Shown here one piece after another: positions 1-55,391 of a stretch of DNA of 57,884 bases (position 1 is its first letter; each line of letters begins with the position of its first letter). This DNA comes from Vairimorpha necatrix (Eukaryota): positions 1,240,001-1,297,884 of the forward strand of contig CP142730.1 in NCBI GenBank assembly GCA_036630325.1. The letters are read 5' to 3'. Made by a program: the position numbers and the translations under genes. The notes beneath the pieces are model-generated. The model had not been told where the DNA came from and ran no database searches. It worked only from the letters and a program-made list of their open reading frames with translations.

Positions 1-199
1 TGTCCAGTTTATTTTTTTTAGGAATAATTAAAATTTCTTTTTATTATTGGTTCTTATGCATTATTAACAAAAAAATTCATATTCTTTTATAATCAAAATT
101 TCGTAAATATAAATTTCGAAGTCCATTTTTTGACTAAAAAAGTAGTAAATTTATAACCGGTGTCAATTAAACATATTCAAAGATAGAATTTCCACTTAT

Positions 200-237
200 T
201 GTAGGGTTTAGAACCCTTAATAAATAAATGGTTAACA
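200..237 (+). repeat. 5' LTR, 38 bp
   Basis: Exact match to 3237-3274. Contains the AGGGTT/AACCCT hairpin, ACCC, overlapping AATAAA hexamers (219-228) and the ORF's ATG. Confidence 0.95.
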
Positions 238-3200
238 TGGCGAACACAAGGATGAACAGGGAAACAAGAGAGTCCCGTAGTCAAGAGGCTAGAACATTAG
301 AGAAAGAGGCAATTAGGATAGATAAGAGACTAAAGTTAATATTGAAAGTTGAGAAAGTTGAGTGGAAAGATGTTATGGATTTGGCATCTGCGAACTTGCA
401 GGATTATATTTTTGAAAATTTTTGTGACGGAAGGAGCAGTTGGGAGGAAATTTATAAAGGCTTACAAAAAGGAGCAGAATTTGAGAGAGAGTCAGAAGAA
501 AGACAAGAAATGATTAAAGAGATTATGGATAAAGTGTTGAAAGAGTTTAGGGAAGAAAGAAAAGAAAATCTTAGGATGTATAGGAAAAGAAGAGAAATCA
601 GAGAAACTACAAAATGTTTTATATGTAAGAAAGAAGGGCATTACGCTAGAGAATGTCATGAAAGTGTAGCTGGTAGGGAAAAATATAAAATTAAAAAGGA
701 ACAAGTTTTACAGAAAGAACCAATTATCAACAATGAAGGGAAAAGATGTAAAACAGTAAATAAGTTAGAAAATTTAATTGAAAAGTATCCGGAAGTTTTT
801 AAAGAATCAGAAGAAAAGATAAAATATCTCACAGGAGAGAAGTGTCCAATAAATACTAAGCAAGGTGAAAAGGTTGTGAAAAGAGGGCAGAATGTGCCAT
901 ACTACCTTAGGGTGAAATTTGAGGAGTACTTGAATAAGTTGGAAAATAGAGGGGTTATAAGACGTTCCAAAAGTGAGTGGAGGAGTCCAATAAGAGCACT
1001 TGAAAACCCAAATGGGGACGTAAGATTGGTAAGCAATTTGATGGCGTTAAACGATTTGGTTGACAAGGACCCGTACTCACTACCGTTAATTAAGGATATT
1101 ATGAGAGCCACACAGGGGTCAAAAGTATTTACGGTTATCGACTTAAAAGAAGGGTTTTATCATATTGAGATTGAGGAGCACCATAAGCACAAAACAGCAT
1201 TTGAAGTGAATGGTCGAGTATACGAATGGAATAGTATGGTTATGGGGTTTAAGAATTCGCCTCATATAATGCAGAGAGTAATGAACAGAGTTTTAGATGA
1301 ATTCAGAGGTAAAGGCGTGGAAGTATATATGGATGATATAGTTATTCATGGTAAAGACGTAAGAGTGCATGACGAGTTACTAGAGAGGGTAATTAAAAAG
1401 TTTAAAGAGTGTGGGTTGAGAATAAACCAAACAAAGATACAATACAAAAAAGATGAGGTGATGTTGCTGGGAGTAACAATTAATGGGGAGGTCATGGGAC
1501 CGAATGAGATTAAAAAGCAGGAGACATTGGAATATAGAAAACCTGAGAATGTTAGAGAGTTAAGAAGATTTTTAGGACTAACTGGTTGGTTTAGAGACTT
1601 TATTCCCAACTATGCGTATAGAACAGTAAGGCTTACTGAGGCTTTAAAGAAAGATGTTAAGTGGAATTGGACGGAGGATATGGAAAGAGCTTTTGAGGAT
1701 ATGAAGCAAGGCTTGAGAGATATGAAAAAGTTGAAGATTCCGGACGGAAAAAAGCTATTTAGAGTAAGAACTGATGCGTGTGATACGGGGATCGGAGCAA
1801 TTCTATTACAAGAAAATAAAGAGGGTGAGTGGATTCCGATACAATGGGCATCGAAAATGTTGACTCCTACCGAGCGAAGATATACGATAAGTGAGAAGGA
1901 GATGTTGGTGGTGTTTTTTGGAATAAAGAAGTTTGAAAGTGATTTGAGAGGAAGGAAATTTCATTTGATGACGGATCATAAAGCATTAGCAGAGATCAGA
2001 AATAAGCCATACTTCAATAATAACAGAATAAACAGATGGGTAGAACAGATACAAGAGTTTGACTTTACAATAGAGTATGTGAAAGGGGAGTTGATGACAG
2101 ATGCAGATGCGTTAAGTAGGCAGTATGATCAGGTAGAAGTTTCGGATGAACAAAAAGAAAAGGACAACAAGAGAAAAGAAGTGATCGAAAAACAAATTTT
2201 GGGAAAAAAGCAGAAACATATTAAAGAAAAGGACGGTAAACAGTATTGGGAATTTTCCACAGGTGAGGTGAAAGAGATATTGAGCCTAGATAGTAGAGAA
2301 CATGAAATAACAAGAGTACATGAGGAGTTAAACCATAGAGGTGTCAAAGGCACTTATTATAACATTAAACAAAGATGGTATTGGCCTGGTATGAAAGATC
2401 ATATTAATAAGGTAATTAAGAATTGTGAAATATGTGGGATTAACAATAGGAAAAACACAGGAGGATGTGATTTCGTAGTAACTAGAAAGAAATTGGAGAA
2501 AGTGGCGTTGGATTTAATGGACATAGGTGGAGAGAATAAGTATGTGTTACTGGGTATTGATTACTTTACTAGAAGGTTGTGGGGTTCGAATTTGAGATGT
2601 AAAGAGAGTAGTGAAGTTATAGAGGTATTACAAAAGTGGATAAGGGAAGATGGATTTCCAGAGGAATATGTGACAGACAACGGAAAAGAGTTTGTAAGTA
2701 ATAGATTTAAAGAATGGTGTAGTATTAATGATATTAAACATAGGAAAGTGGGCTTAGAAGCTCATAGGAGTAATGGTAGAATCGAGAGATGCATCAGAAC
2801 TATAAGAGAGACATTGATAAAGCAAAATGATGGGAATATTTCTGAAAAGATAGAAAGAGCAATCAAAGGATATAATAATACACTACATACAGCAATAAAA
2901 TGTACGCCGATGGAAGCGTGGAGAGATCAAACTGCTGAAGTTTTAATTGAAAATGATGAAAATGGAAAATATGCTGGTCGGTTCAAGAGAAGACACAGAG
3001 AGACATTTACAGTAGGCCAAGAGGTAAGAATCGCTAGGAGAGAAAATTTAGGTACACGTGCGAAAACAGACAAGGGAAGATTCACGGGTCGCGGAAGGAT
3101 CGTAGCTATAAGTGAAAATGATTCATATATTGTGAGACTACTGGATGGTAAAATTGTTAAAAAGAGGCATTATGATTTGAAAGAGATAAGGAAGAGTTGT

Positions 3201-3248
3201 TTAAAAGATGGAGAGACTACCCGTCTGGAGGGGGGATGTAGGGTTTAG
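228..3248 (+). CDS. Gag-Pol polyprotein (short Gag with CCHC knuckle, RT, RNase H, integrase); no protease motif seen
   Basis: 1006-aa ORF. CFICKKEGHYAREC knuckle; RT IDLKEGF...YMDD; RNase H TDAC...TDHKAL...ADALSR; integrase HEELNH...CEIC with LDLMD/TDNG/IERC; SH3-like C-terminus. An alternative ATG lies at 237. Confidence 0.95.
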   Translation: MVNMANTRMNRETRESRSQEARTLEKEAIRIDKRLKLILKVEKVEWKDVMDLASANLQDYIFENFCDGRSSWEEIYKGLQKGAEFERESEERQEMIKEIMDKVLKEFREERKENLRMYRKRREIRETTKCFICKKEGHYARECHESVAGREKYKIKKEQVLQKEPIINNEGKRCKTVNKLENLIEKYPEVFKESEEKIKYLTGEKCPINTKQGEKVVKRGQNVPYYLRVKFEEYLNKLENRGVIRRSKSEWRSPIRALENPNGDVRLVSNLMALNDLVDKDPYSLPLIKDIMRATQGSKVFTVIDLKEGFYHIEIEEHHKHKTAFEVNGRVYEWNSMVMGFKNSPHIMQRVMNRVLDEFRGKGVEVYMDDIVIHGKDVRVHDELLERVIKKFKECGLRINQTKIQYKKDEVMLLGVTINGEVMGPNEIKKQETLEYRKPENVRELRRFLGLTGWFRDFIPNYAYRTVRLTEALKKDVKWNWTEDMERAFEDMKQGLRDMKKLKIPDGKKLFRVRTDACDTGIGAILLQENKEGEWIPIQWASKMLTPTERRYTISEKEMLVVFFGIKKFESDLRGRKFHLMTDHKALAEIRNKPYFNNNRINRWVEQIQEFDFTIEYVKGELMTDADALSRQYDQVEVSDEQKEKDNKRKEVIEKQILGKKQKHIKEKDGKQYWEFSTGEVKEILSLDSREHEITRVHEELNHRGVKGTYYNIKQRWYWPGMKDHINKVIKNCEICGINNRKNTGGCDFVVTRKKLEKVALDLMDIGGENKYVLLGIDYFTRRLWGSNLRCKESSEVIEVLQKWIREDGFPEEYVTDNGKEFVSNRFKEWCSINDIKHRKVGLEAHRSNGRIERCIRTIRETLIKQNDGNISEKIERAIKGYNNTLHTAIKCTPMEAWRDQTAEVLIENDENGKYAGRFKRRHRETFTVGQEVRIARRENLGTRAKTDKGRFTGRGRIVAISENDSYIVRLLDGKIVKKRHYDLKEIRKSCLKDGETTRLEGGCRV

Positions 3249-3274
3249 AACCCTTAATAAATAAATGGTTAACA
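3237..3274 (+). repeat. 3' LTR, 38 bp
   Basis: Exact match to 200-237. Preceded by the PPT, followed by TSD CTTAT, and contains the ORF stop TAG (3246-3248). Confidence 0.95.
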
Positions 3275-6200
3275 CTTATTAATATCTCAAAGGATCTTTT
3301 TAATAGCTAGATTTAAATTTCATAACCCAAACATTATGTTCCTATTATTTTACCTTTTTAAAAATTTAAGTAAAATTTTTTAAATGAGGATAAACATACA
3401 ATTTCGAAATATGATTTTTTTTATGCCATTAAAATTGGAGATCATAATAAAAACAAAAACCTTTTTTATATTGAAAAGCCAACCATCGTACAAAAATTTC
3501 AATGGCCAATAACTTGTGATGCCTACCACAATGCTAAAAGGCTCTTGTCTGTATTAATATACAATTTTTTTTTGAACTATTTAGTAGTCCATTAGAAAAC
3601 AAGGCCATATTAAGTAATATTAAAATATTGCAAGAGCCTGTACTTAAATTACTAATTTGATCTAAGAAGTTACACGTGACAAGCAACATGTTCATTTTAA
3701 ATACTGTCAAAAGTATTCAAATTTTATCATACAGCTTCTAAAGCGTCGAATTAATTTTTGAAATTTTAGTATTTCATTTCTATTTTTTAACTCGAAATAC
3801 AAAATCAAAAAATTAGAATTGCTCAAATGAAAGATTTGAAAATCTCAATCAAATATGAGAACAAACATGAAGACTCATAGAAATTCAAACAAACAAATAG
3901 AACTATCTAGGCGCAAAAGCAAAAGTTTTTAATAATAGAAAAACATAAAATTTTTTATTAAGCTTTGAAAGAGTGCAATTTTGTTTGTCAATAAAAAATA
4001 ATGTAAACTCGAGAATATGTTCTTTGAGATACATTCCTCCATTGAATTTTATTATTCAAATTCCTTGTTTTCTATTCCACTGAGATTTATTTTAGGAATT
4101 ATTACTATCAATATAAGATTTTATATCAGCTTTCATTTCATTATGAATCTCTCGTTTCTTTGTATATAGCCTGGTATTTAGTGATTATGTTGCTACTGAG
4201 AAAACTTTTTATTATGAAAGATCAAAAAACATATTATATTGGGAATACAGACGAAACTATACATATTTACAAACCACATAAAAAATAATAGAACAGCAAA
4301 CGCAAAATATGCAAATGTAGTTAATTGTTCTAAAAAGGCGCCTTAAAATATCTATTATTCCATGAGCACATTTTTTTAAACCTGTAAAAATCGGACATTT
4401 AATGGTCAAATAAAAAACCTGTCTTTTATGATTTTTTTACAACAATATATCCGAAAAGACGCTGTATTCAACCTTTTTCAAAGACGAATGGCACATACTA
4501 ATCCGTCCCTACTTATTTAGACCATTTTTTAAAAAAGTACTCATGTAATTTGCTTTTCAGGTGAGCAATATAGAGCTATATAATAAATGTATTTTTTCTA
4601 CTACAAATGTAGTTAATTTGCTTAGGACTAATTTGATTTTGAGCTTATCTTTGTATTTTGTTATAATTCTTCATCTTGTCTTGGCTTTTTTTAGGAAAAG
4701 AATAAAGAAAACTTATATACTGACAAAGAATATCCTATCTACTGTACAAATATTATAAATTGTTTTCCTCTCTCTTTTTTTAGTACAAATTTCACTTATT
4801 ACTAATAATATAGTCTCCATAAGAAACTTAAGACGTTTTTTAATTTTTTTTGTTAGTATGAAATTGTTATACCACTATTTTTATCTAAAAAATGTATAAA
4901 TTTTTTCTTCTAAGTTTGATATTTAAAATCATAATCACAGTAGTTATTATATAGCTAATTTAACTTTCATTAAATCCGATTTTTTTTTCATTTCTAACAG
5001 TACTACAATCATCTATCAGTATTAGTTCCCTTTAAAAATTCTTGTTAAGTCTTTACGAAATATTTCCGTTTAAATTATCATGTTCTTTAACAATTTGGTC
5101 AATTTTTATAATTGACAATTTATAAATAATTTTAAACTTTGATATTTAAGCATCAAAGATACTATTTATTAGTCAAAGCTTATATTAAGAATAATAACGA
5201 AAGTCAAATATTACAATATACTACATAATTCCTATTAAAATATATGTAAACAGATATTCATAATTTTTAAATCTACGACCATATATTTGTAATATATATT
5301 ATCATTTGAAATTATTCAGTCATTTGAATTTTTTTCATATAAATAAAAGACTTTGTGTCTTATTTTGTACCTAGCTTAAAACGTGCAAAATTTATTTCAA
5401 TGGGTTTTTATAAAAATATTAATAGAGATAGATTACTTTTTTTTCCTCAAATAGTGTCAACAGTAATTTATTAAAGACGGGGACGCGTTTTAACAAAACG
5501 TAAAAAATAATATGTACCTCATAAATATTTACTTTTCAGACTTTGTATATTTTCTAAATATATATAAGTTTTTTTTCATTAAAATTTTAATTTTGATTTT
5601 AAAATTCATACTCTTATTGTATAATTTTCTAATTTGTACAAAACCACTGAGTAATTTTATTCTAACCACGAAAAGCAGCATAATAAACAATATAACAGAT
5701 AAAGTTTGATAAACAAAAAAACATATTTGTATTCAAATATCATTACCCCCTTGCGCCTTAGTACGCCATCCCTTAGAACACGCCACCAGTTTACTGTTAG
5801 ATAAGCATTGTTTTCTGTAATCGACAGATTTACTTATAAAAGTTAAATCTTGAGCCGTAAATGTTTTTAATATATCATATGATAAATTTAGATAAGGTAT
5901 AACTTTTTTAAGAAATTCCAAGTATGTGGACTTTTTTTTCCTCGCAAAAAAGTATGAAAAATTTACGAGCATTAGATTATAAATGAAATTTTAGACATAC
6001 TATATTGCTAATCAATCAAATATTTTTAATAAGTAAAAAAATTGATCAAGCATTTAAGAATTTGTTAAGAAAATATTAAGACTGAAAAATCAAAAATAAA
6101 ATCTTTTGATGTATTTGTATTTGCTAATGGGTATGCTTTTTACAGCTTAACAAATTGCAAATTTCTATGTTATCTTGTGAATTGCGTAAAATTTTTTTTA

Positions 6201-8329: not shown

Positions 8330-9631
8330 TTAATTTTTATTTATTTTTCTTAATAAAAATACCGAAAAAGCAAATATTAATATGAAAATGGCATATAACA
8401 ACAAATAAAGATATGGTTTGCTATTTCTGTCATTGGGATTATCTTTTGAATCATTGTTATTATTGTCGTGTTTACTATCGGGTATCGAGGTTTTTAGAAT
8501 CTTATCCGCCTTTTCATTCTCAAGATTATTATCAAATTCTGAGTTATCAAGCTTCTTTTCAGACTTTTCATTCTCGAGCCCTAAATTGCCTGGATTCTGA
8601 TCAAGCGTTTCGTCATCAAGATTTTTATCAGGCTCTGATTGCAAATAATTTAGGTTCTTATCAGGGATTTCGTCCGCAAGACCCATATCAGGAGTTTTGT
8701 TCGCAAGATTATCATAAGTTTCTGAATTTTTTGAATTTACACTATATTCTTCTTTCTCTTGATTATTATCCAGCTTTACGTTGCCATTCTTATCTGAGAT
8801 TTTATTTATAAGTTTATTATCAGATTCCAAATTGCCTAGAATCTTATCAGGCGTTTCGTCAAATAAAGTTTTGTCGGTTTCCGAGTTATTTAAATTCTTA
8901 TCAGAAGTTTCTTTATCAAGATTATTATCAGGTCTTATGTTACTTAGATCAGCATCGAGTTTTTCGTTTTTAAGATTATCAATCGGTTCTATATTCAGTT
9001 GTTTTTTATTTTCTTTAGTATTTTCATAAGTATCATTTTGCTCAAGATTCTTATTACTATTATCCAAACTATTAGTACTCTCCGAATCAGAATTATTTAT
9101 TACATTTGAACTATTCTGGCTCAAATTATTTATAATTTTTCTTGCTTTTAGTATGACTAGCTCCCCAAAATGTAATTTACCATCAAAATTAAATAATTGT
9201 GTGTAAGAAAGATCTTTGGGTCCATTATTCGCTCTTTCTAAAAGAAGTCCAAAAAAATATTTTCTTCCATCCGCTAAGTTGATTGTACATTTATAATATT
9301 TTACACTTTTAATAAATTTTCTAATACAATCGTAACGATTAAATTTTTCTGCAGCTTTTCTGATCTCACAAAATGCCTCTTTTTTTATTAGTTGTAAGTC
9401 GCTTTCATTACCTGCCATCGATAGTTCTACTTTATCATATAAATCGTCTCGATTTGGAAGCTCAGAAATAAAATCTTCGTCTTTAAGAAGCGTAATTCGC
9501 AGGTTTTCTAGACCGCTAGCAAAGCTTGTAATACCAACATATACATCACATGTATCATTTTCTTTATACTCAACAAATAGTGATAGCCAACAATATCCCC
9601 AAACAATAAATATTTGAAGCTTCCAATACAT
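8330..9631 (-). CDS. Hypothetical type I membrane/surface protein with N/D/K-rich repeats
   Basis: 433-aa ORF with ACCC 2 nt upstream of the ATG. Hydrophobic N-terminus, degenerate DKNL..E.D repeats, C-terminal TM segment YLYLLLYAIFILIFAFSVFLL followed by a short basic tail. Confidence 0.88.
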   Translation of the reverse strand: MYWKLQIFIVWGYCWLSLFVEYKENDTCDVYVGITSFASGLENLRITLLKDEDFISELPNRDDLYDKVELSMAGNESDLQLIKKEAFCEIRKAAEKFNRYDCIRKFIKSVKYYKCTINLADGRKYFFGLLLERANNGPKDLSYTQLFNFDGKLHFGELVILKARKIINNLSQNSSNVINNSDSESTNSLDNSNKNLEQNDTYENTKENKKQLNIEPIDNLKNEKLDADLSNIRPDNNLDKETSDKNLNNSETDKTLFDETPDKILGNLESDNKLINKISDKNGNVKLDNNQEKEEYSVNSKNSETYDNLANKTPDMGLADEIPDKNLNYLQSEPDKNLDDETLDQNPGNLGLENEKSEKKLDNSEFDNNLENEKADKILKTSIPDSKHDNNNNDSKDNPNDRNSKPYLYLLLYAIFILIFAFSVFLLRKINKN

Positions 9632-11901: not shown

Positions 11902-12930
11902 TTATAATTCATTTATAGCATTTTTAGTATGTTTAATCTTAAATAATTTGTAAGAATAATACATAACTAGAATTATTAATGGAATAATGATGAATAATAC
12001 AACAGTTATTAGATTAGATGGAGACATCACAGGGTTACGCTTAGTATCGCCATCATCAGAAGATGAATCTTCTTCATTAACATGATTTGATTGCGAAATC
12101 TCCTGTTTGATATCAAGCTTGCTAGGATTGCAATCCTCTTTAGTACGGAAAACTGGTTTTTTGTTGTCATATAATTCTGTCTTGGTATTGTTTTCTCGAA
12201 ATTCAATTGTACTAGTATCAAAATTCTTATCAAATTCTAATTCTTTATTGGTATTATTTTCTCGAAATTCAATTGTACTAGTATCAAAATTCTTTTCAAA
12301 TTCTAGTTCTTTATTGGTATTATTTTCGCTAAATTCAATTGCATCAGTTCCAGAATTCTTTTTAAATTCTACTTCTTTATTATTATTATTTTCTCTAAAT
12401 TCAATTGCATCAGTTCCAGAATTCTTTTTAAATTCTACTTCTTTATTATTATTATTTTCTCTGAATTTAATTGCATCAGTATCAGAACGTTTTATAAATT
12501 CTAATTCATTATTGTTATTATTTTCTCTAAATCCAATTGCATCAGTATCAGAACGATTAATAAAAGCCAATACTTTAATGGTATTGTTTTCTCTAAATTC
12601 AATTGCGTCAGTATCAGAATTTTTTTTAAATTCTTTTTCGTGTTGAAATACCTCTATAAAATTAATATTTACATAATATTTATACTCTATCTTTGGTTCA
12701 CTTTTATCATCAATGATTACACTTGCAACTTCGCTTTTGAAAGATTCTATATCTAACGCATTCACATTTTGCTCTTTAATTTCTATTCTCGATTCATTTT
12801 CAATACGTAAATGCCTTCTTAATGCTTGATATTTTAAATAAATGGATACAATACCAGACAAATATTCAATAATATGATTTCCATGATTAATGAAAGTTAA
12901 ATATAAGCAAACAAACATGATAAAAAACAT
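11902..12930 (-). CDS. Hypothetical type I membrane/surface protein with 22-aa tandem repeats
   Basis: Lies within the 368-aa ORF. The likely start is the ATG at 12930 (GCCCTATT-ATG), giving a hydrophobic N-terminus MFFIMFVCLYLTF. C-terminal TM LITVVLFIIIPLIILVMYY. Confidence 0.85.
   Translation of the reverse strand: MFFIMFVCLYLTFINHGNHIIEYLSGIVSIYLKYQALRRHLRIENESRIEIKEQNVNALDIESFKSEVASVIIDDKSEPKIEYKYYVNINFIEVFQHEKEFKKNSDTDAIEFRENNTIKVLAFINRSDTDAIGFRENNNNNELEFIKRSDTDAIKFRENNNNKEVEFKKNSGTDAIEFRENNNNKEVEFKKNSGTDAIEFSENNTNKELEFEKNFDTSTIEFRENNTNKELEFDKNFDTSTIEFRENNTKTELYDNKKPVFRTKEDCNPSKLDIKQEISQSNHVNEEDSSSDDGDTKRNPVMSPSNLITVVLFIIIPLIILVMYYSYKLFKIKHTKNAINEL
12180..12640 (-). repeat. Intragenic 66-bp tandem repeat (about 7 copies)
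   Basis: ATTCAATTGTACTAGTATC recurs at 12201 and 12267. Peptide unit of type IEFRENNTNKELEFDKNFDTST. Confidence 0.92.
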
Positions 12931-13849
12931 AATAGGGCTTAAAAAATAGCAATATATAACAACAAGATCACACTTGAATTTATTAAAGATTAAATTTATA
13001 GATAACAACGAGAAATACTTTTAAAATAATTTTCTTAGATTTTTACAGTTCATAACAAGATGTAAAAATCTTTTTTTAAAATATTTGACAGGAAAAAAAT
13101 TTTGAAAATCATTTGTAAAGCATTAATATGCATAAAATAATTCGAGGCTAAGATCATATTGTCTTTTCATTGCCACATTCTTGAATAATAAATATTAAAT
13201 AGTTAGATTTAGATCGAGGCACTCAGAAGTACATTAAAATGTCATATTTTTGTAAAGATATAATAATAATCATTAAATTTATGATGGCTGTCAATTTTTC
13301 ATTTTTTTTATTTTTGATAATTTTCCCTTAAAATTTGTTTACGTTTAACAATACATACGGTTATATATTGCTAATAAATTTACAAGAAAACTTCTTTAAA
13401 GCTGAATTACTATTGACCTTAAATTTTACTCTCTAAATATATAGCCACTTATGGCTAAAGATGCTAATACAATCCCCTCTCTAAATATGTTCACTTTATT
13501 TTTTCGAACCCCTAAAAAAAAGTGCAAAAAAGCAGGAGCATGAAGGAGACAAAAATTACTAAGCACTTATGACATTAAAATAAAAAAATAAATATATTAT
13601 AAATTTAGTTTAAAATTATTTAAGGTATTGTACCTTATTTACCCTTTTTAGGGTGGAGGATACATTAGACCCCCTTTTTAAAGCGCTTCAATTTTTTTTC
13701 GAACCCCAAAATTGAAATGCAAAAAAAAGAGGAGCAAGAAAGGAATAAAAATTTCATGCCACTTTTAGCATTAAAAATACAAAATAATAAAATAAAGCGG
13801 CTTTAAATTAATTTTTAAACACAATATGTTATACAAAACCACTTTTTTA

Positions 13850-14342: not shown

Positions 14343-14440
14343 TCTATTGTAGGAAGTGCTACACATGTCAAATATATTGTGTCATTGTTTTGATATATTT
14401 GACATGTTGTTTCTTTAAATATTTTATAATAATTAAACCC

Positions 14441-15667
14441 ATGTTTTTATCCCAACAATTTGGCGACAACGTCAGGAACTTTCTCATTTTCAGAAATGAA
14501 GAAAAAGATGATCCACAACAGTTCTTGGAGGACTTGCAGGATGTGGGGAGGCTGATGGAGTACAGTGAGAGTAAACTTGTACTCCTTTTCAGAATGTCGT
14601 TAAAAGATGAAGCGAGGGATTGGTTGATAGCGCAGCCAATTGGTCTTTCACTTGAAAGACTGAAATTTTTGTTTCAAGAAAGATTTGTGGGTTCTATGGC
14701 GATGAAAGTGAGTATAGATAAACTTTCCGCTCTTCAATATCATGGTGGATCGCTAATCAACTATCTAGATAAGATGGCGGGATTGGCGCGCAGGGCGAAT
14801 GTTCCGGAAGGTGTATTAATTGCTTTTGTACTAAAAGGAATTCCGAACAATATAGCAAATTCGATCTTAATAAATAACAAAGACTCATTATCCTGGGAGT
14901 ACCTATATAAAGCCATAAGGAATGTTTTGGAAGTGGATGATACACGTCATAAAGAAATTTCGCGTGGAGATTATGTGGATGTAAAAGCGATTAGCTGCAA
15001 GGTCCACGATAGAAAGATTTGGACTTCTAAAAGGAACAAAGAAAAGAGATGTTTTATTTGCGGAAAGAAAGGCCATACAGTAGCACGGTGTAAATTTAAT
15101 AGTTACCGTAGAGATATAAGCGAAGTCAAGAAACCCCAAGAAGAAGGAGAAAATAAGAAGGTGGATGTAAAGGAATTTATTTATAATTACTCTGTTGCAA
15201 AGGTCAAGGATGATAGGACTACGCTCAAAGAAGCGTCATTAAATAATTCGGAAGTTAAATTTAAAGCGCTCATCGATACTGGTGCTGATATAAATCTAAT
15301 TAGACCAGAGATTTTGCCAAATAAAACCGTTGTTAATCGTTCTAAACAACAGCTTAGGGCAGCCAATGGATCGAAAATAAGGATCATTGGAGAAACAGTA
15401 GTTAAAATAAAAATTGAGGGAATGATATTTGAAGATAAATTTATTATTACTAGGGATATCACAATTCCCTGCATTATAGGACAGGGGTTACTAGACATGT
15501 ACAAGATAAATTTAAAATTTGGAAGTAACAAAATGGAAATTGAATCTGGACTTTTGGCAAAGGGAAAAGCCATAGGATACATAAAATTATCACAAAGAAT
15601 GATAACCCAATACTATCTCAGTTATACAAATTGGGGGGAGCAAAAGAGGATATTGCGTCCCAAATAG
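14441..15667 (+). CDS. Gag-protease
   Basis: Start ACCC-ATG at 14441 inside the 5' LTR. Retrotransposon-gag-like LKDEARDW...FQERF; CFICGKKGHTVARC knuckle; protease ALIDTGADINLI...IIGQGLL. Confidence 0.9.
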   Translation: MFLSQQFGDNVRNFLIFRNEEKDDPQQFLEDLQDVGRLMEYSESKLVLLFRMSLKDEARDWLIAQPIGLSLERLKFLFQERFVGSMAMKVSIDKLSALQYHGGSLINYLDKMAGLARRANVPEGVLIAFVLKGIPNNIANSILINNKDSLSWEYLYKAIRNVLEVDDTRHKEISRGDYVDVKAISCKVHDRKIWTSKRNKEKRCFICGKKGHTVARCKFNSYRRDISEVKKPQEEGENKKVDVKEFIYNYSVAKVKDDRTTLKEASLNNSEVKFKALIDTGADINLIRPEILPNKTVVNRSKQQLRAANGSKIRIIGETVVKIKIEGMIFEDKFIITRDITIPCIIGQGLLDMYKINLKFGSNKMEIESGLLAKGKAIGYIKLSQRMITQYYLSYTNWGEQKRILRPK

Positions 15668-17934
15668 TGAAAGAGTATCTAAAACGTGGAATAGTTAGAC
15701 CAAGTGTAAGCGCATGGCGAAGCCCGATAATTATAGTCCCTAAAAAGAATGGAGACCACAGATTATGTGTGGATTATCGAAGATTAAATGATGCGACTAT
15801 TAGAGATGCGTATCCAATGCCTAGAGTAGAAGAGTTCATCAACGCTTTAGAGGGTGCAACATACTTTACTAAATTAGACGCTGAATCGGGCTATCACCAA
15901 ATAGATATGGCGCCGTGTGATATTGAGAAGACAGCCTTTGCCTGTAGAGAAGGCTTATTTGAATTTACAAAAAAGCCATTTGGACTTGTTAATGGTCCAG
16001 CTACATTTCAGCGGGTGATGAATAACATATTGAGGGAATTTTTGTTTAAGTTTGTGGTAGTATATATGGATGATATACTGATTTATAGTAAAACTGAAGA
16101 AGATCATAAGAAAGATGTTCAAATGGTATTAGAGAAGCTCAAGTCGGTAGGACTGAAACTTAATGAGGATAAATGCGAATTTAATAAGACAGAATTAAAA
16201 ATTTTAGGTCATGTGATATCAAAAGAGGGAATAAGTGTGGACGAAGAAAGGTTTAGGAGCATTCAACAGTTACCAATTCCTAAAAGTAAGAAGAAATTAC
16301 AATCTTTGTTGGGGCTGTATAATTATTGCTCTAAATTTATTAAAAACAGCCATAAAGTGGTTAGCCCACTATTCGATATAATAAGACTCAAGAATGAGGA
16401 CGCTGATAACTTTTGGAAAAATGCAGAGAATGATGCAAAATACTGCAAGGCAATCGAAGAGGTAAAACAGGCTATGAAGAGAACAGCTTTATTGACAATT
16501 CCAAATTTAAAGGATAGATTTATATTGACTACGGATGCATCGAATGAGGGAAGTGGGGCAACATTGGCTCAGATGGTCGGAGGAAAAGAAAAGATTATTT
16601 CTTATTACAGCTCTTTACACTCCAAGACAGAAAAAAACTATTCTACTACTGAGCAAGAATTGCTAGCAGTTATAAAATCGATTCAAAACTTCAGAGAATA
16701 TTTATTATTGGGGAAATTTACGCTAAAAACGGATCATCAGGCTTTAAAATATTTGTTTAAGTCTAGGAATGTAAAAGCTAGGTTGGCTAGATGGTCATTA
16801 CTGCTACAAGAATATGATTTCGACATTGAATATATTACAGGACCATCAAACCATACAGATCACCTAAGCAGAGATTTTAAAAAACAGGAGGAGATAGTTT
16901 CAGAAATAAGTTCAATACAAAGGAAAATAGTTAAAAAAGAAAGGACAATAGTGTTATTAAAGTTTTACCATGATTTATTAGGGCATGGATCAAAACAAAA
17001 TATGAAATATAATATTGGTCGAAAATTTACTTGGAAGAATATGAGTAGAGACATAGAAAATTATGTAGATAATTGTGAAATTTGTCAAAAAGAAAAACCT
17101 CAGAGAAAATTTAGAGATATTGTACCATTAGTAACAAAGACAATAGGAGAAATCTGGGAAGTAGACATAGTAGGGCCCTTGAGAGAAAGCGAGCAAGGAT
17201 ATAAATTTTTATTGACAATGATTGATCACTTTTCGAAAATTGCAGAGGTGGTGCCGATTTATACAAAAGATATGAATACGGTTATTTATCTGGTAGATAA
17301 ACATATAGTCAGGAAGTATGGTATTCCAAAGGCAATTTTATCTGATAATGGTAAAGAATTCAAAAATAATATCTGTGAGGAATATGCGAAGACCAAAAAA
17401 TTCATCTGGAAATATGGTTCCCCTTATAAACCTACAACCACGGGGCTTGTTGAGAGGTTTAACAGAACAATAGCCATAAAATTAAGGAAGGTTACAGAAT
17501 TTGGGAAATTTGATTGGGCGAAATGTGTCCCTAAAGTAGTCCGAGCCTATATGCAATCATATCATAGGGCTATAGGGTGTGCACCAATAGAACTTTTAAC
17601 AGGAATAGTTCCAAATAAGATAGATATACAAGAAGGAATGCACCTAACAAAGGATAAGAAAGAGTTTCAGAAGCAGGCGATTAAGAATTTGGAAGTTTAC
17701 AGACAAGAATATGACACGGGTAATAAAGCTAATGCTGTTGATAAGGATGCCATTAAGGTGGGAGATAGAGTTTGGTATCATTTAATTTTACCGTTTAGAG
17801 GAAAACTCGAACCAAAATGGGAAGAAAAAGGAGTTGTAGTAGAGAAAAAATTTCATTCATTTAAAGTTTTATTAGATAGTGGGAAGACTGTTACAGCAAG
17901 CCGAAATCATGTTAAGCTTTTAAAGGAGGGGTAG
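15544..17934 (+). CDS. Pol (RT-RNase H-integrase), in the -1 frame relative to gag-PR
   Basis: Frame open from 15544. HKIITKNDNPI, LCVDYRRLN, YMDD, TDAS, TDHQAL, HDLLGH...CEIC, VDIVG/SDNG/VERFN. No ATG start of its own near the 5' end. Confidence 0.9.
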   Translation: MWTFGKGKSHRIHKIITKNDNPILSQLYKLGGAKEDIASQIVKEYLKRGIVRPSVSAWRSPIIIVPKKNGDHRLCVDYRRLNDATIRDAYPMPRVEEFINALEGATYFTKLDAESGYHQIDMAPCDIEKTAFACREGLFEFTKKPFGLVNGPATFQRVMNNILREFLFKFVVVYMDDILIYSKTEEDHKKDVQMVLEKLKSVGLKLNEDKCEFNKTELKILGHVISKEGISVDEERFRSIQQLPIPKSKKKLQSLLGLYNYCSKFIKNSHKVVSPLFDIIRLKNEDADNFWKNAENDAKYCKAIEEVKQAMKRTALLTIPNLKDRFILTTDASNEGSGATLAQMVGGKEKIISYYSSLHSKTEKNYSTTEQELLAVIKSIQNFREYLLLGKFTLKTDHQALKYLFKSRNVKARLARWSLLLQEYDFDIEYITGPSNHTDHLSRDFKKQEEIVSEISSIQRKIVKKERTIVLLKFYHDLLGHGSKQNMKYNIGRKFTWKNMSRDIENYVDNCEICQKEKPQRKFRDIVPLVTKTIGEIWEVDIVGPLRESEQGYKFLLTMIDHFSKIAEVVPIYTKDMNTVIYLVDKHIVRKYGIPKAILSDNGKEFKNNICEEYAKTKKFIWKYGSPYKPTTTGLVERFNRTIAIKLRKVTEFGKFDWAKCVPKVVRAYMQSYHRAIGCAPIELLTGIVPNKIDIQEGMHLTKDKKEFQKQAIKNLEVYRQEYDTGNKANAVDKDAIKVGDRVWYHLILPFRGKLEPKWEEKGVVVEKKFHSFKVLLDSGKTVTASRNHVKLLKEG

Positions 17935-18049
17935 TGTAGGAAGTGCTACACATGTCAAATATATTGTGTCATTGTTTTGATATATTTGACATGTTGTTTC
18001 TTTAAATATTTTATAATAATTAAACCCATGTTTTTATCCCAACATCTAT

Positions 18050-19334: not shown

Positions 19335-19975
19335 CCAGTACAAGAGATCATGGAAAATGATCGTGCAGAAATAAGAGTAGATACGAGAATATCCACTAAC
19401 ATAAATGTGACCCATAATAAGCCTGCTATTCTTGTGTTGACAAGAAGAAGAAAGAAATTTTAATAGTTGAAGTTGTATAACCAACCAGGATCGACTTACT
19501 ATACCAAGAACGAAAAACCAAGAAATATTACCTTCCTGCAAATGAACTGGGACTAATAAATCTCGGACGAGAATAGTTCCTTATGTAATGACATGGGATG
19601 GAGTGATAACTAAATATCACAGAAAGTACACCAGGGAGCTAGAAATCCAACCACGCCCGGAAGCATAAATCCAGTCTATTGTGATGAAGAAGACTCTAGA
19701 GTCCATCTCTTTGGAACTACGACGAGGATACGATCAGATGCAAAAGAAGAAGAAGAAGAAGTGGCTAGAGCTGTAAGCGCAATAGCGAATATGGCGACTG
19801 TTAAAGAAGTGGTGTCGGCAAATGGGAATGAAGCTGAAAAGGTGAAGTTGGAAAACATTAATAATTCCACAGAAACAAAAGTCTGTGAAGAGCTAAATCC
19901 CATGAGCGATACCGGGGATAGCTATGCTAACACTATTTAAAATTAATTATAAATTAGCCCAATAAATTACTTATT
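19335..19975 (+). mobile_element. 5'-truncated non-LTR retrotransposon, restriction-like endonuclease (RLE) C-terminus, decayed
   Basis: Broken frames give AEIRVDTRI..HNKPAILV, DKKKKEILIVEV, ANELGLI and IVPYVMTWDGVITKYHRKY...IQSIVMKKTLESISLE. This is a PD..E/K-type RLE pattern. Confidence 0.8.
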
Positions 19976-20294: not shown

Positions 20295-22592
20295 ATGAAT
20301 ATAATTAAATTTGTTGTAGCATTTTTAGTTGTACAATGTTCGGATATTGTGTATAATAATCTAAAAATTGCTTTTTTAAATAAAATAGCAGTAGGAGATT
20401 ATTGTTTTTTGAATAATGAAAGCAGATATTTATGTGTAATGTTTAATTTTCACCTTCGCAAAAATGCAATAAAAGCAGGAATTAAGATTACAACTTTTCC
20501 TTGGCATTTTGAAGAATCAGAATATTTGATTGTGGATATGGAGAACAAATCTATTGATAATATCTTAAAGAAATTCGAAGAAAAATTATTTATTAAATAC
20601 AAAAAAAAAGCAGCAGATGCTATAATATTAATATACAGACCAAACAATTGTAGAACTAATGCATTCTATAAAAGAATTATCAAACGGATAGAAAAAATAA
20701 ATGACGAACGAAAAGAAATGCATATACGTCCTGATATCATTTATAAATATATAATTGGCATCGATTCTCTATGGTATAGAATGACCAAAGTATTGAGAGA
20801 TGATTTGGAATTATACGGAGTTCGGATCGATTATAAAATTCCGCTATATATTGAAGAAAATACAGAAGGAATTTATTTAGTTATTAGTATTCAATTAGAT
20901 AATATATATTATTGTTTTGAAATAGATGTTAAAGAACTTGATAGAAATTTGATATTATCACTGGTGGAATTTGAGCCAACACATGAAGATGAAAGTCATG
21001 ACCTGATTAGTAGGTTGTTTTGTGATTTGTATGCTTTTGTTTCTACTGATGATATCGGTTCCTTACATCCTTCACGCTTTTCAGTTTGTGAACTCAATAA
21101 AATTGAATTTTTCGAAAACAAAATACAAATGGGTTTAGAATGTGAAAAATTATGTCTTACTATTAACACTGATAATTTTAAATATATTTTAAGAAAGAAG
21201 GTAGGTAGAGGTGAAACTAAATTATTCATTTATGAAAAAACATATTTAGAATTTCAAGGATTTTTTAAAAAAATTTATGCAATAGAACAAATGAAAGAGA
21301 AAGAAAATATCATAGAATTGTTTTATAGGTTGATGAGTAATAATAATCAAATACTTTATTTATTAAATAGAATTTTAGATAAAACAAGCACTGTTCTGAA
21401 TATTATTTTTAAATATCTTATAGACTGTCAGAATATAATTAATAAAAACGAACATGAGTTGACAATAGGAAAAAAACAGAGAAATAAAACAGAAAGGCAA
21501 ATAATCTTGGAAGCACTACAGGATATATTTTCGCGCGGCTATAAGTCATCAAGTACCTATCTAATTAAAATCTGTTTATTGCTAGAAGCTGAAGAGCTTA
21601 TTAATAAAAACGAGGTATTCGATGAACCAATATTTGGGACTTTGAAAAGAATTACTGAATTAGTTCCGTCGCAGGAAAATTCAATGAACATTATCTCGAG
21701 CGAAGATAATATTAATTTGTGTAAAGCATATCAATATTTAGTAAAAAATTGTCTTGCGGATATAAAAATATATAAAAGAAATATTTGGAAGGTTGTATAT
21801 AAATTTGCGGCATTGTTTACAGGTTTAGAAAAGACTGAATGCATTGCAGCTGATTATTATTATTATATCGTAAAAAGTAATGAGATCGCAAATTTGGGCC
21901 TCGGGGAAAATGAAGTTACTAAAAATTACGATACGGTAAGTAAAAAAATATTAGAAAAACATTTAGAAGACATTAAAAAAGAAAATTTAAAGTATTTTTA
22001 TAATATTAAAAATATTATCGAAAGCATTAGCCATCTAAAAATGAGCGAAGAAGAAATAAAGATTAAAGGATCTGAAATAACGACACTCTTAAATAAAATA
22101 AATATAAAAATACATAGATTAAAGTTAATGTCTTTGAAAAATGAAGCTTTAAATGCAAATATTGAAAATTTATACGATGAAAAGACAAGAACTAAATTTG
22201 AAAATGACTTAAGAGAAAGAGGAAAAGAAGAAATAACAGATATTTATATAGGTGATATTGAAACTCACGAATTAATTAAATTCATAGATAAATATGATAA
22301 AAATATTCTACTCGAATATAATAATTTTATTTTGATTACATTCTTTGCTGAATTGAGTGCTTTTATTGACAAAAATACAAAAAGAAGTTGTGAAAGAGAT
22401 TTACCAAGAGTTTCTGTTTTACTTATCGAAAATAGTTTAAATAATGAAGCATTTAAACAATATGCTTGCGAAAAAATTCTTAGAAGGATGGTTAACATAT
22501 TAGGTGAAATTGGCATATTAAAAAGTTTAAATAAATCAGGAATAACATTACATGATGATTTAGTAAAAACAATAAAAGATAAAGAAGAGTGA
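20295..22592 (+). CDS. Hypothetical secreted protein, 765 aa
   Basis: Long ORF in AT-rich DNA with AACCCC-ATG start. Signal-peptide-like MNIIKFVVAFLVVQCS. AATAAA just after the stop. No domain recognised. Confidence 0.9.
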   Translation: MNIIKFVVAFLVVQCSDIVYNNLKIAFLNKIAVGDYCFLNNESRYLCVMFNFHLRKNAIKAGIKITTFPWHFEESEYLIVDMENKSIDNILKKFEEKLFIKYKKKAADAIILIYRPNNCRTNAFYKRIIKRIEKINDERKEMHIRPDIIYKYIIGIDSLWYRMTKVLRDDLELYGVRIDYKIPLYIEENTEGIYLVISIQLDNIYYCFEIDVKELDRNLILSLVEFEPTHEDESHDLISRLFCDLYAFVSTDDIGSLHPSRFSVCELNKIEFFENKIQMGLECEKLCLTINTDNFKYILRKKVGRGETKLFIYEKTYLEFQGFFKKIYAIEQMKEKENIIELFYRLMSNNNQILYLLNRILDKTSTVLNIIFKYLIDCQNIINKNEHELTIGKKQRNKTERQIILEALQDIFSRGYKSSSTYLIKICLLLEAEELINKNEVFDEPIFGTLKRITELVPSQENSMNIISSEDNINLCKAYQYLVKNCLADIKIYKRNIWKVVYKFAALFTGLEKTECIAADYYYYIVKSNEIANLGLGENEVTKNYDTVSKKILEKHLEDIKKENLKYFYNIKNIIESISHLKMSEEEIKIKGSEITTLLNKINIKIHRLKLMSLKNEALNANIENLYDEKTRTKFENDLRERGKEEITDIYIGDIETHELIKFIDKYDKNILLEYNNFILITFFAELSAFIDKNTKRSCERDLPRVSVLLIENSLNNEAFKQYACEKILRRMVNILGEIGILKSLNKSGITLHDDLVKTIKDKEE

Positions 22593-51958: not shown

Positions 51959-52056
51959 ATTACAAATTAAAGAAGTAATTTCATTTTTTTACAATATATT
52001 ATTACATAAATTTATTCGCAGAAAAACATTAAAAATACTTTAAGTATTAATTATAA

Positions 52057-55000
52057 TATTAAAGTCGAACCTATTATTAAATAAATGTATAACATGGCGA
52101 ACACAAAATACGAAAGGTTAACACAAGTGAGACCTGTGTTTAAGAGAAGAAAAAAATACTAAAAGAAGCTCGGAGAGTGAGACAATCATCATAATGCAGA
52201 AAGATGTACAAGATGTGACAACATAAAAAGGAAGCAAGTAAGTACTGAACTTCAAAATTTTAATATTGATAAAAAACTACTTAGTATGATAAATTGGAAT
52301 GATATTATTGATAGAATTGATAAATTAGTTGTGAAGAGAAAGAGATAAGAACAAGAAAAAAATAAGGTGTAGAGAACTAGAAGATATGGTAGAGGGTATG
52401 AAAGAAAAATTAAAAAGAGAGAAAAAAAAAAAGATTTCACTAGAACTGTAGCAGTGCCAGGAAGTTACTTATAATATCAAAGACGAAAAAAAAACATTGT
52501 TTTATATGTGTAAGAATTATACATATAGCTAGAGGTTGTATGGAGCGTAAAGGAAGACATGAAGAGAATAATGAAAATAAAAGTGTTAAATATTTATGCA
52601 TTCGTGGTAATAGTAAAATGAAAATATTAAAAGGAATTGATTTCAAATTGAGACTACCAGTGGAGGTAGAAAGAGAGAACTCAAGAAACAGTTTTTATGT
52701 AAAAAATTCAAACCAAGATAAAAGAAGAAAAAATATTAATAAATATGAAGAATTAGAAGGAAAATTTTCGAGGTATTGTGAAAAGACGAAGGAAAAAGAA
52801 AATACTCAACAGGGATAAAATGTTCTTTTAAAACAAAACAATGAGTGAAATTAGTGCAAAAGAAACAAAATATTCCTTATAAACTTTGAGAAAAGTTAGA
52901 AAAGTATATTAATTTATTAGAAAGTAGAGGTATTATCAGAAGGACAAAGAGCAAATGGAAAAGCCTAATAAAGCCCATAGAAAAACCAAATGGTAAAGTA
53001 CAATTGAGAAGCAATTTGATGGCTTATAATGAACTGGAATAAAAAGATCTGTATGAAATGCCATTGATTAGAGACATATTAAAGCAACGCAAGGTTCTAA
53101 AGTATTTATGGTTATAGACCTAAAGGAAAGATTCTATCATATAGAAATTGAGAGAGCTTACAAACATAAGACAGCTTTTAAGATAAATGGTAGAGTTTAC
53201 GAATGGAATGGCATGGTAAAAAATTAAAAAATGCTCCCCATATTCTGCAAAGAGTGATGAACGGAGTTTTAAATAAGTTTAGAGGCAAGAGTGTTGAGTT
53301 GTACATGGATGATATTATTATTTATGCATGAGATAGTAATATACAAGAAAATTTTTTAAAACAAGTAATTCGAAAATTTAACGAATGTGGATTTAAAGAA
53401 ACTTAAAAAAGATACAATATAAAGGAGAAGTAAAACTACTGGAGTAACAATTAACTGAGAAGACATTAAAATGAAAAAATATATAGGAGTAGACATTAGA
53501 ATACAGAAAGCCTAACAACATAAAAGATCTTAGAAGAGTTGAGGAGCGGGCAGGCTGGTTAAGAGATTTTATTCATCATTATGCTTATCGGTCAGCGCTT
53601 CTTACAAGAGCACTAAAAAAAGATAGTAAATGAAAATGGTTACAAGATATGGAAAGAGCTTTTATGGATATCAAAGAGGATTTAAAGGATGTGAAAAAAT
53701 TAAAAATAGAAGATAGATAAAAAAAATATTTAGAGTAAGAACGTGTGCATGCGATACGACAATTGGAGCCATACTTCTGCAAGAAGACAAGGAAGATAGG
53801 TGGATTTGAAACAATGGGCATCAAAAATGATAACATTAACAGATAAAAAGTATATGATTACTAAAAAAGAGATGTTGGCAGTGTTATTCGGAATAAAGAA
53901 ATTTGAGTCAGATTTGTGAGGAAGAAAAATTCATTTAATAACAGATCATTAATCACTGGCCGAGATTAGAAACAAACCGTTTTTCAATAATTACATAATT
54001 AAGAGATGGATAGAATATATACAAGAGTTCGATTTTATTTTTGAATATGTAAAAGGAGAATTGATCACGTATTTATATGCTCATAGTAGACAATTTAAAA
54101 AAACGAAGTGAAAGTAAAAAAGCGAAAGTAGAAACGGCCCAAAAACAGATGAAAGAAAAAGAAATAAAGCGCATGGTCAATAGAAAAGGTAAAAACTATT
54201 GGAAGTTTTCAACAGGAGAAATTAATAAATACAACACAAAGAAATAAGTGAGAACAGAAATTCATAGAGTTCATGAGGAATTAAATCATCGAGGAGTTAA
54301 GGGAACACATTATAAGATTATACAAAGATGGTACTGGCCAGGTATGAAGGACCAGATAACCACATCGCTAAAAAATTGTTAAGTATGTAGCATTAATAAC
54401 AGAAACGCGACCTGAGGTTGCAATTTTGTAACAACATTCAAGAAATTAGAAAAAGTAGTTTAGACGTATTGGATATTGTAGAAAAAGAAAGGTACGTGCG
54501 GTTAGGTATTGACTACTTTGAGAGAAAGAGTATGGGGCGCAAAGATGAAAAATGAGAGAAGTGATGTTATTACGAAAATTTTAGAAAAAATTGTTTAAGG
54601 AAGATGGATACACAGATGAATATTTTACGGATAACGGTAAAGAATTTGTCAGTAATAAGTTTGTAACTTGGTGTAAAGTAAACGAAATTATGCAATAGAA
54701 AGTAGGTTTAGAAGCTCATAGGAGTAATGGAAGAATAGAACGATGTATTTGAACAATAAGGGAATCGATGATCCATGAAAAAGAAGGAAACCCAGAGGAA
54801 AAACTAGAACAAGCTGTAAGAACTAATAATTCTTACACACAGCGATTAATTCAACACAATTGAAGCATGGAAAGAACAAGGAAAATAAGTCTTTATTGAA
54901 AACAATAAAAAGGGTGTGTATTCAAGTAATTTTAATTTAAGGCATAGAGAAAAATTTGAAGTAGATCAGGCTGTGAGAATTGCAATAAGAGAAAACAAGG

Positions 55001-55228
55001 GTAAATAGATGAAAAGTATGAAAGGAAGATTTACAAATGTTGATAAAAGGAGGGGAAAGTCTGAGAATAATTCTTATATTGTAAGGATTGATAGCGGAAG
55101 ATACATTAAGAAAGACATTATGACCTAGAATTTTATAAAAATGATAAATTAGAAGCTTGTAACCTGAGACTACCCGTTTGAAGGAGAAATGTTAGGGTTG
55201 AACTTTCCTATTAAATAAATGTATAACA
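52057..55228 (+). mobile_element. Decayed full-length family A Gypsy element with 38/39-bp LTRs
   Basis: LTRs at 52057-52094 and 55190-55228 end in identical TATTAAATAAATGTATAACA. TSD TATAA on both sides. Same PBS TGGCGAACAC and pre-PPT GAGACTACCCGT as the copy at 200. Colinear pol (YMDD near 53302; HEELNHRG near 54272) with many stops and frameshifts. Confidence 0.93.
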
Positions 55229-55391
55229 TATAATCATTAATCTGAAAAAAAAATAATTGAATAAAAAAAATAGTTAGATAAATTTTTATTAAAAATTTTC
55301 TTTTTTTATTTATTTTAGTTACATATTGATTTAACTGATAAATTTTTTAAACAAAAGATTGAGGAAGTTTTGAGGGCTAAAAGCTTACGTG

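Follow-up and report, generated by a model that had tools for sequence, protein, structure and literature searches.

Can a long terminal repeat (LTR) retrotransposon persist without a protease of its own? Textbooks treat an aspartic protease and a capsid-forming Gag as obligatory in LTR retrotransposons and retroviruses. The question is raised by a 57,884-nucleotide stretch of the microsporidian Vairimorpha necatrix (GenBank assembly GCA_036630325.1, contig CP142730.1, positions 1,240,001 to 1,297,884 of the forward strand), which we call the window. Near its start lies a Ty3/gypsy element, here named family A. A reading of the letters alone (the original prediction) had claimed that the family A polyprotein has no aspartic protease and a very short Gag, and had offered three ways in which the protein could function: unprocessed, cleaved by a host protease, or complemented by protease-bearing families. 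We followed up these claims with profile searches, structure prediction, a phylogenetic tree and a measurement of selection. The protease is absent from family A. We lean, at a little better than even confidence, towards the reading that the element is an intact member of a clade of miniature microsporidian Ty3/gypsy elements in which the protease was lost once, the Gag was reduced and the product remains unprocessed.

The family A polyprotein

The element carries one open reading frame (ORF; 228–3248, plus strand) that encodes 1006 amino acids (aa) in a single frame. The order of its parts is helical N-terminus, CCHC knuckle, 41-aa linker, reverse transcriptase (RT), RNase H and integrase. 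See Table 1 for the coordinates of all features. RT, RNase H and integrase stand in the order typical of Ty3/gypsy elements, and the RT falls among Ty3/gypsy sequences by Pfam, by its homologues and in our tree. A nucleocapsid CCHC knuckle, also a Ty3/gypsy trait, is present. The Pfam zf-CCHC match to aa 129–144 is weak (20.8 bits, at the cut-off), and all 27 aligned family members share residues C130, C133, H138 and C143. The catalytic domains are similarly well preserved, as Y367, D369 and D370 of the RT and H698, H703, C733, C736, D762, D817 and E853 of the integrase are invariant in 15 aligned sequences, together with the acidic residues of RNase H.

The original prediction placed about 40 charged residues between the end of the knuckle at 656 and an EKYPEVF segment near 780. 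Our boundaries agree, with EKYPEVF beginning at nt 780 (aa 185). The length and sequence of this linker are variable among relatives. Within it lies a basic patch, GKRCK (aa 171–175, nt 738–752), and a patch of the same K/R-K/R-x-K/R type occurs about 30–45 aa past the knuckle in most family members. This patch may be a nuclear import signal.

No aspartic protease in family A

Retropepsins (peptidase family A2) have a β fold of about 90–100 aa with a D-T/S-G loop, and we found neither in the expected place. No D[TS]G is encoded in the three plus-strand frames of nt 1–1100, and the sole instance in the protein is the DTG at aa 519 (nt 1782), inside RNase H, just as the original prediction had it. 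No peptidase family of Pfam matched the whole protein at E ≤ 1 or aa 1–261 at E ≤ 10. As a control, the protease-bearing relatives L002 and P0045 gave full-length gag-asp_proteas matches at E ~5e-4.

What such a result leaves to ask is whether a divergent protease escaped detection. Precomputed Pfam lists also overlooked the real but divergent proteases of P0045, P0046, P0050 and P0054, and therefore absence from Pfam alone is weak evidence. The available text of Muszewska et al. 2011 (PMC3248453) states that protease profiles often fail on divergent elements, and for this reason we used clade-specific controls. A custom protease hidden Markov model (HMM) was seeded with L002, P0045 and family B, a second Ty3/gypsy element of the window, widened to 10 sequences and run with the search filters off. 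None of 45 proteins (the window protein plus P0001–P0044) scored below E = 1, and three gave noise at E 2–9.6; six of the 45 have a truncated N-terminus, which makes them unscorable for a protease. The same model recovered P0045, P0046, P0054, L002 and family B at E 1e-31 to 1e-35 (these are among the training rows), P0050 at 2e-09, and 20 of 23 L002 relatives at E < 1e-3.

There is also little room for such a domain. From the end of the knuckle to an invariant anchor, Cys206, there are 62 aa, of which about 28 form a conserved pre-RT helix and strand. In the 35 members with a knuckle (window included), this distance is 56–105 aa in 32 and 134–195 aa in three, and the three long linkers are of low complexity. 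In the protease-bearing relatives, a domain of about 100 aa ends 6–31 aa before the same anchor.

Next, we modeled aa 1–261 with AlphaFold2 from a 27-sequence alignment. The mean predicted local distance difference test (pLDDT) score was 77.6, with values above 90 for most of aa 20–150. Helices were predicted at aa 14–37, 46–52, 55–65, 72–127, 147–162 and 178–191, with low confidence at aa 163–177. The model is all helical save for the knuckle and contains no β domain, so the retropepsin fold in the N-terminal region that the original prediction had named as evidence against itself was not found there. A control model of L002 (aa 1–400, from five sequences) has a β domain at aa 213–298. Foldseek gave this model 231 matches in the PDB at E ≤ 0.001, the best being the Ddi1, HIV-1 and foamy virus proteases.

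Absence thus stands by Pfam, by the custom HMM and by AlphaFold2 with Foldseek, and the answer to the question of an escaped protease is no because the positive controls succeeded. That a highly divergent or relocated protease has been overlooked is barely credible to us, in spite of the failure of the Pfam lists on real proteases. The clade-specific HMM found nothing across all 1006 aa, aa 1–261 are predicted to be helical, the 41-aa linker is too small for a fold of about 90–100 aa, and the remainder of the protein is RT, RNase H and integrase. Apart from this ORF, a single frame of at least 80 aa overlaps the element, and it encodes 87 aa on the minus strand.

The reduced Gag

The original prediction gave the Gag a length of about 145 aa including the knuckle, and we count 129 aa before the knuckle and about 143 aa with it. 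Pfam showed no Retrotrans_gag or Ty3_capsid match in aa 1–129. The model of aa 1–261 had no match of any kind in the PDB by Foldseek at E ≤ 0.001, and a capsid domain was not identified by this measure. At E ≤ 10 there were 49 matches, with only local alignments of 15–20 residues on retroviral nucleocapsid fingers. Compared as profiles, 22 family A Gag parts and the Gag of six relatives aligned collinearly but not significantly, at 4.3% probability. A search of the ESM Atlas with aa 1–184 gave a best score of 0.83 (0.81–0.83) to clusters with Retrotrans_gag and CCHC domains, which is too low to serve as more than a lead. Furthermore, phmmer with aa 1–205 against 1.84 billion representatives returned 61 matches at E ≤ 0.001, mostly short Gag fragments or unrelated knuckle proteins, and among them was no longer form with a protease.

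Miniature LTRs bound the element

The ends of the element had escaped the original prediction. Family A is a complete element of 3075 bp (200–3274, plus strand), present as an intact copy and bounded by two LTRs of 38 nt (200–237 and 3237–3274) that are 100% identical and read TGT...ACA. A search for direct repeats that used a 12-nt seed and required at least 40 nt overlooked them, and they were detected by a blastn self-comparison with a word size of 7. The 38-mer has two matches in the window at ≤3 mismatches, versus 0.00 expected from 100 shuffles, and its 3′ half is invariant across five aligned family A LTR copies. We checked mini-LTRs in these five copies as well as in L002 (67 nt) and family B (110 nt). 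TG..CA repeats and a target-site duplication of 4–6 bp are typical of Ty3/gypsy elements; family A has both, with repeats far below the usual length. Ends of this kind are what an integrase leaves when it inserts an LTR retrotransposon, here one of 3075 bp. The window begins only 199 nt upstream of this copy.

The layout is very compact. The ORF begins in the 5′ LTR and ends in the 3′ LTR, so that about 98% of the 3075 bp is coding. Its second ATG spans the border between the LTR and the primer-binding site (PBS), the PBS-like site itself forms codons 4–8, and the purine tract lies within the last codons. The word TGGCGAACACAA adjoins the LTR in both the intact copy and a second, decayed copy, and the first 12 nt of the PBS-like site are identical in the two. 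This word codes for a MANT(R/K) N-terminus that is kept in P0002, P0004, P0005, P0007, P0121, P0124 and P0127; probably it is the nucleotides that are conserved here, to serve primer binding. The window contains no tRNA genes, so there was none to match to the PBS-like word. Equivalents of the purine-rich tract were also seen in the decayed copy and in the relative L001.

A second insertion of the short form

The window holds two independent family A insertions, each with its own target-site duplication. Coding pieces of the second, decayed copy correspond to aa 189–979 at 45–72% identity and lie in several frames (tblastn). In its frame 52444–52818, a degenerate knuckle, CFICVRIIHIARGC, is followed by a hydrophilic stretch that is longer than in the intact copy and then by a pre-RT-like segment; neither D[TS]G nor any other protease motif was found in this frame. 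This bears out the original description of a somewhat longer, equally hydrophilic linker. As each copy is flanked by its own duplication at the termini of the short form, it is this short form without a protease that inserts. The LTRs of the decayed copy differ by several G-to-A changes (5′ TGTTAGGG versus 3′ TATTAAAG).

Relatives, phylogeny and selection

A homologue search returned about 50 close relatives, mostly of about 1000 aa and many on contigs of 3.0–3.2 kb. All homologues are Ty3/gypsy-type polyproteins, and those with a named source come from Nosema granulosis, Vairimorpha necatrix and Enteropsectra breve. We built a tree from the RT to the integrase with 55 rows, eight short rows being omitted, using IQ-TREE (quick search, LG+G4); only a chosen outgroup roots it. 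The protease-less rows form one clade of 39 (38 plus the window protein) with an SH-like approximate likelihood ratio test (SH-aLRT) support of 99. This clade consists of a knuckle-bearing subclade of 37 rows plus P0041 and P0043, which have neither knuckle nor protease. Its neighbors are the protease-bearing P0045, P0046 and L002, and farther out lie P0054, with a knuckle and a DSG protease, and P0050. The clade spans several genera and has diverged to about 45% identity. A single loss of the protease in the clade is the simplest reading of this tree.

We measured selection on the DNA of one relative, L001, a contig of 3024 nt whose ORF is 66% identical to that of family A and which has a homologous 38-nt 3′ LTR containing the stop codon. 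Synonymous differences per site (pS) are about 0.77 and thus saturated. Nonsynonymous differences (pN) are 0.125 in the RT, 0.14 in RNase H, 0.23 in the integrase and 0.41 in the knuckle plus linker. By this comparison, the three enzymes are under purifying selection. As the synonymous sites are saturated and the catalytic residues invariant, functional enzymes appear to have been kept long after the protease was lost.

These data bear on the idea that the copies are defunct remnants of an ordinary element from which a protease was deleted, which we consider very improbable. It is true that the second copy in the window has decayed. However, no protease was detected in any of the 45 clade proteins, many assemblies contain proteins of about 1000 aa, and the idea is contradicted by the single protease-less clade, by the purifying selection and by the target duplications that flank the short form in both copies. 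Sister copies with a protease at this position, which the original prediction had said would make these copies deletion derivatives, were likewise not seen; the close relatives lack a protease there. Nor does family A resemble the non-autonomous large retrotransposon derivatives (LARDs) and terminal-repeat retrotransposons in miniature (TRIMs), which have lost their coding capacity and depend on the proteins of a partner, as its 1006-aa ORF is intact, keeps its catalytic residues and is under purifying selection.

The nearest protease-bearing lineage is represented by L002, P0045 and P0046. Like family A, these elements are compact (about 3.5 kb) and have a single ORF, with a polyprotein that is 38% identical, and L002 has a very short TGT..ACA LTR of 67 nt that holds the start codon and is followed directly by TGG. 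Unlike family A, the lineage has a retropepsin of about 100 aa (with DTGS in L002), its Gag is longer and has no CCHC knuckle, and the L002 ORF stops about 80 nt short of the 3′ LTR. LTR length falls in a series from family B (110 nt) to L002 (67 nt) to family A (38 nt). In four of nine aligned sister-clade proteases (P0184, P0185, P0187 and P0045), the D-T/S-G triad is replaced by DLG, DPG or DRG, and the fold-defining segments are kept. These active-site changes may mean that constraint on the protease had already loosened before it was lost.

The contigs L001–L004, which carry retrotransposons of this eukaryotic type, are filed in bacterial metagenome-assembled genomes (MAGs) labeled Clostridium sp., Erysipelotrichales, Turicibacter sp. 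and Thermoguttaceae. Contamination of these bins by a microsporidian-like eukaryote is the most likely reason.

How family A may function without a protease

Of the original interpretation, the absence of the protease and the very short Gag held up, and its three mechanisms are inseparable by sequence alone. It had overlooked the 38-nt LTRs and target-site duplication, the start and stop of the ORF within the LTRs, and a protease-less design that is clade-wide and has a protease-bearing sister.

Because the element has no protease, its product is most likely unprocessed. In the mechanism that we favor, the transposing unit would be the whole 3075-bp element, with a Gag reduced to a helical segment and one CCHC knuckle, and the product would act as one unprocessed polypeptide. 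The N-terminal helices and the knuckle would bind and chaperone the RNA in a nucleocapsid role, RT-RNase H would copy the RNA, and the C-terminal integrase, still fused, would insert the cDNA. The route would thus run through a ribonucleoprotein instead of a protease-matured capsid particle. Two features count for this mechanism: family A keeps all activities save for cutting and the shell, and the linker at the would-be cut site is short and variable. RT-integrase fusions are natural and active elsewhere, as in the β subunit of avian retroviruses and the RT-IN species of Ty3.

The second mechanism has a host protease cut the polyprotein into Gag-like, RT-RNase H and integrase parts. The linkers between knuckle and RT and between RNase H and integrase are variable and partly of low confidence (aa 163–177), which would make them accessible to a protease, and the former evolves faster than the enzymes (pN of 0.41 versus 0.125–0.23). 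Eukaryotes encode Ddi1, a protease of retropepsin fold, and Ddi1 is the best fold match of the protease of the L002 sister element. On the other hand, no conserved cleavage-like motif is evident in the linker alignment, and none of the 45 family proteins has a 2A-like NPGP skipping site. Host cleavage fits the data no better than an unprocessed product does, and we regard it as rather unlikely.

The third mechanism supplies the protease in trans from other elements of the same genome, and family B is one candidate. It lies in the same window, has an RVP domain and shares its LTR design with family A: both LTRs start with TGTAGG, end with AACA and contain the ATG. The 110-nt LTRs of family B lie at 14348–14457 and 17935–18044 and are flanked by the duplication TCTAT (14343–18049 with the duplications). 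Its ATG at 14441 directly follows a CCC word within the LTR, the stop codon abuts the 3′ LTR, and the gag-protease ORF overlaps the pol ORF at 15631–15667. Named microsporidian sequences, such as P0196 of Dictyocoela muelleri, are also among the protease-bearing relatives. However, purifying selection still acts on the knuckle, RT, RNase H and integrase of family A itself, which is unlike typical non-autonomous elements. Retropepsins act inside assembled particles, and a Gag-like part without detectable capsid similarity would be hard to picture co-assembling in the particle of another family. Moreover, the Pol proteins of families A and B are only 30% identical and the family A clade has diverged to about 45% identity across several genera, so that a lasting partnership would be needed. 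We consider supply in trans improbable.

Several points weigh against our preferred reading of an intact, unprocessed element. Protease-defective Ty1, Ty3 and retroviruses are not known to complete replication. These elements also need Gag in excess over Pol, and a single unprocessed ORF would give Gag and Pol at 1:1. If translation starts at nt 228, the U3 part of the LTR is at most 28 nt long, and the source of the promoter is unexplained. Three cluster representatives that align to family A aa 1–145 stop 2–9 aa past the knuckle (P0121, 155 aa; P0122, 139 aa; P0124, 149 aa); these may be fragments, or some relatives may make a separate Gag. The nuclear-import reading of the basic patch is a pattern match only. 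The tree is a quick LG+G4 tree in which six clade rows are N-terminally truncated and were not scored for a protease, and the window has only one intact family A copy. Finally, our ranking of the three mechanisms, which puts an unprocessed product first and complementation last, is by inference only.

A broader proposal is that the clade gave up both the capsid shell and proteolytic maturation, and that a single polypeptide works as a naked ribonucleoprotein, a LINE-like cis strategy derived from a Ty3/gypsy ancestor (LINE, long interspersed nuclear element). We put this forward tentatively, as an idea that may well prove wrong.

Other features of the window

Table 1. Features of families A and B in the window
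Feature	Position	Strand	Remarks
Target-site duplication, 5′ copy, CTTAT	195..199	+	Read directly; same as 3275–3279
5′ mini-LTR, 38 nt	200..237	+	GGGTT/AACCC inverted pair; AATAAA-like words; first in-frame ATG (228)
Gag-like reduced region, aa 1–129	228..614	+	All helical; one 56-residue helix, aa 72–127
PBS-like site, TGGCGAACACAAGG	238..251	+	Abuts 5′ LTR; also codes N-terminal MANTR
CCHC zinc knuckle, aa 130–143	615..656	+	Nucleocapsid type; C-x2-C-x4-H-x4-C
Linker, 41 aa, HESVAG...NKLENLI	657..779	+	39% D/E/K/R; helix aa 147–162, then low-confidence stretch
Pre-RT segment and RT	780..1481	+	RVT_1 aa 261–418, E 9.7e-31; YMDD 367–370
RNase H, aa 481–611	1668..2060	+	Pfam RT_RNaseH; contains sole DTG of the protein
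Integrase	2295..2744	+	Integrase_H2C2 aa 690–741; rve DDE core aa 764–839
Polypurine-tract-like site, GGAGGGGGGA	3227..3236	+	Abuts 3′ LTR, within ORF
3′ mini-LTR	3237..3274	+	Holds ORF stop codon (3246–3248)
Target-site duplication, 3′ copy, CTTAT	3275..3279	+	Read directly
Family B, complete Ty3/gypsy element with protease	14348..18044	+	Protease ~nt 15239–15514; Pfam RVP E 8.6e-06, above cut-off
Decayed family A copy	52052..55233	+	Target-site duplication TATAA at 52052–52056 and 55229–55233
Decayed copy, 5′ LTR remnant	52057..52094	+	
Decayed copy, PBS-like site	52095..52106	+	Followed by frame-broken coding part
Decayed copy, 3′ LTR	55190..55228	+	

About 150 nt beyond the decayed copy, the end of the window (55384–57884) consists of about 2.5 kb of irregular TTAGG/TAGG/TAGGG repeats with a strong G-over-C skew, which are telomere-like. 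Together with a low G+C content and the nearest named relatives, this TTAGG-type array is the ground on which the sequence itself points to a microsporidian host. Tandem repeats include seven copies of a 66-nt unit at 12106–12705, within a minus-strand ORF (11902–13008), and five copies of a 157-nt unit at 30966–31748. Two pairs of direct repeats were also seen. The pair 43483–43709 and 45172–45399 is 92–94% identical and 1.69 kb apart, with similarity that runs past the aligned stretch, and the pair 19641–19899 and 35417–35673 is 83–86% identical and 15.8 kb apart. The ORFs 8330–9631 (minus strand, 433 aa) and 20295–22592 (plus strand, 765 aa) have no Pfam match at E ≤ 0.01.

Significance

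A lineage without a protease and without a capsid Gag, whose enzymes appear to have long been under selection, is a test case for what LTR retrotransposition requires. If the broader proposal of a naked ribonucleoprotein is true, protease and capsid would be dispensable for the LTR class, and 3075 bp, with 38-nt LTRs and about 98% of the length coding, would be near the minimal size of a self-sufficient LTR retroelement. Family A also carries the compaction of microsporidian genomes over to the parasites of the parasite, as its ORF reaches into both LTRs and takes in the PBS and the purine tract. LTR-finding programs in common use expect LTRs of at least about 100 nt. Elements such as family A would then be annotated as stray reverse transcriptase genes or, as here, be binned in bacterial MAGs.

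Comparison with known systems

The closest described systems are the microsporidia-specific Ty3/gypsy groups of Parisot et al. 2014 and the Nbr elements of Nosema bombycis, which share with family A the phylum, the superfamily and a single polyprotein ORF. In the microsporidia-specific groups, one polyprotein ORF replaces separate gag and pol genes, and the word "protease" does not occur in the main text of that paper (PMC4202319). The available text of Williams et al. 2008, citing Xu et al. 2006, gives "nearly all" Nbr elements the order Gag-protease-RT-RNase H-integrase (PMC2474625). Protease loss, 38-nt LTRs and a reduced Gag are not described in the available text of Parisot et al. or Williams et al., and that of a 2026 genome paper makes the single-ORF point only (PMC13174016). 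As for size, Gao et al. 2012 present, in the text available, a 292-bp non-autonomous element as the smallest LTR retrotransposon, most reported ones being over 4 kb (PMC3281118). In full-text literature searches we found no protease-less Ty3/gypsy lineage and no microsporidian LTRs this short; an earlier passing or tabulated mention, as in Xu et al. 2006 or the supplements of Parisot et al. 2014, is possible.

Family A has in common with Ty3 of Saccharomyces and Tf1 of Schizosaccharomyces the RT-RNase H-integrase order, a CCHC knuckle, a 5-bp duplication and TG..CA ends, and with Tf1 a single ORF. Ty3 and Tf1 differ from it in having a maturation protease, a two-lobed capsid domain, LTRs of several hundred bp and a total length of about 5 kb.

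Replication without an element-encoded aspartic protease is known from DIRS-type elements and from the P protein of hepadnaviruses. DIRS elements have a tyrosine recombinase in place of a DDE integrase, together with split or inverted repeats, and hepadnaviruses have no integrase. Unlike both, family A has a DDE integrase (rve and Integrase_H2C2 domains), direct LTRs and target duplications.

Lastly, ORF1p-type proteins of LINEs have a coiled coil and, in some lineages, CCHC knuckles. The modeled N-terminus of family A is similar in that a long helix is followed by a CCHC knuckle without a capsid fold, and this arrangement suggests a ribonucleoprotein and not a shell. Unlike LINE ORF1p, with which we obtained no sequence or fold match, the family A module is fused to the RT, and the element uses an integrase, not target-primed reverse transcription.

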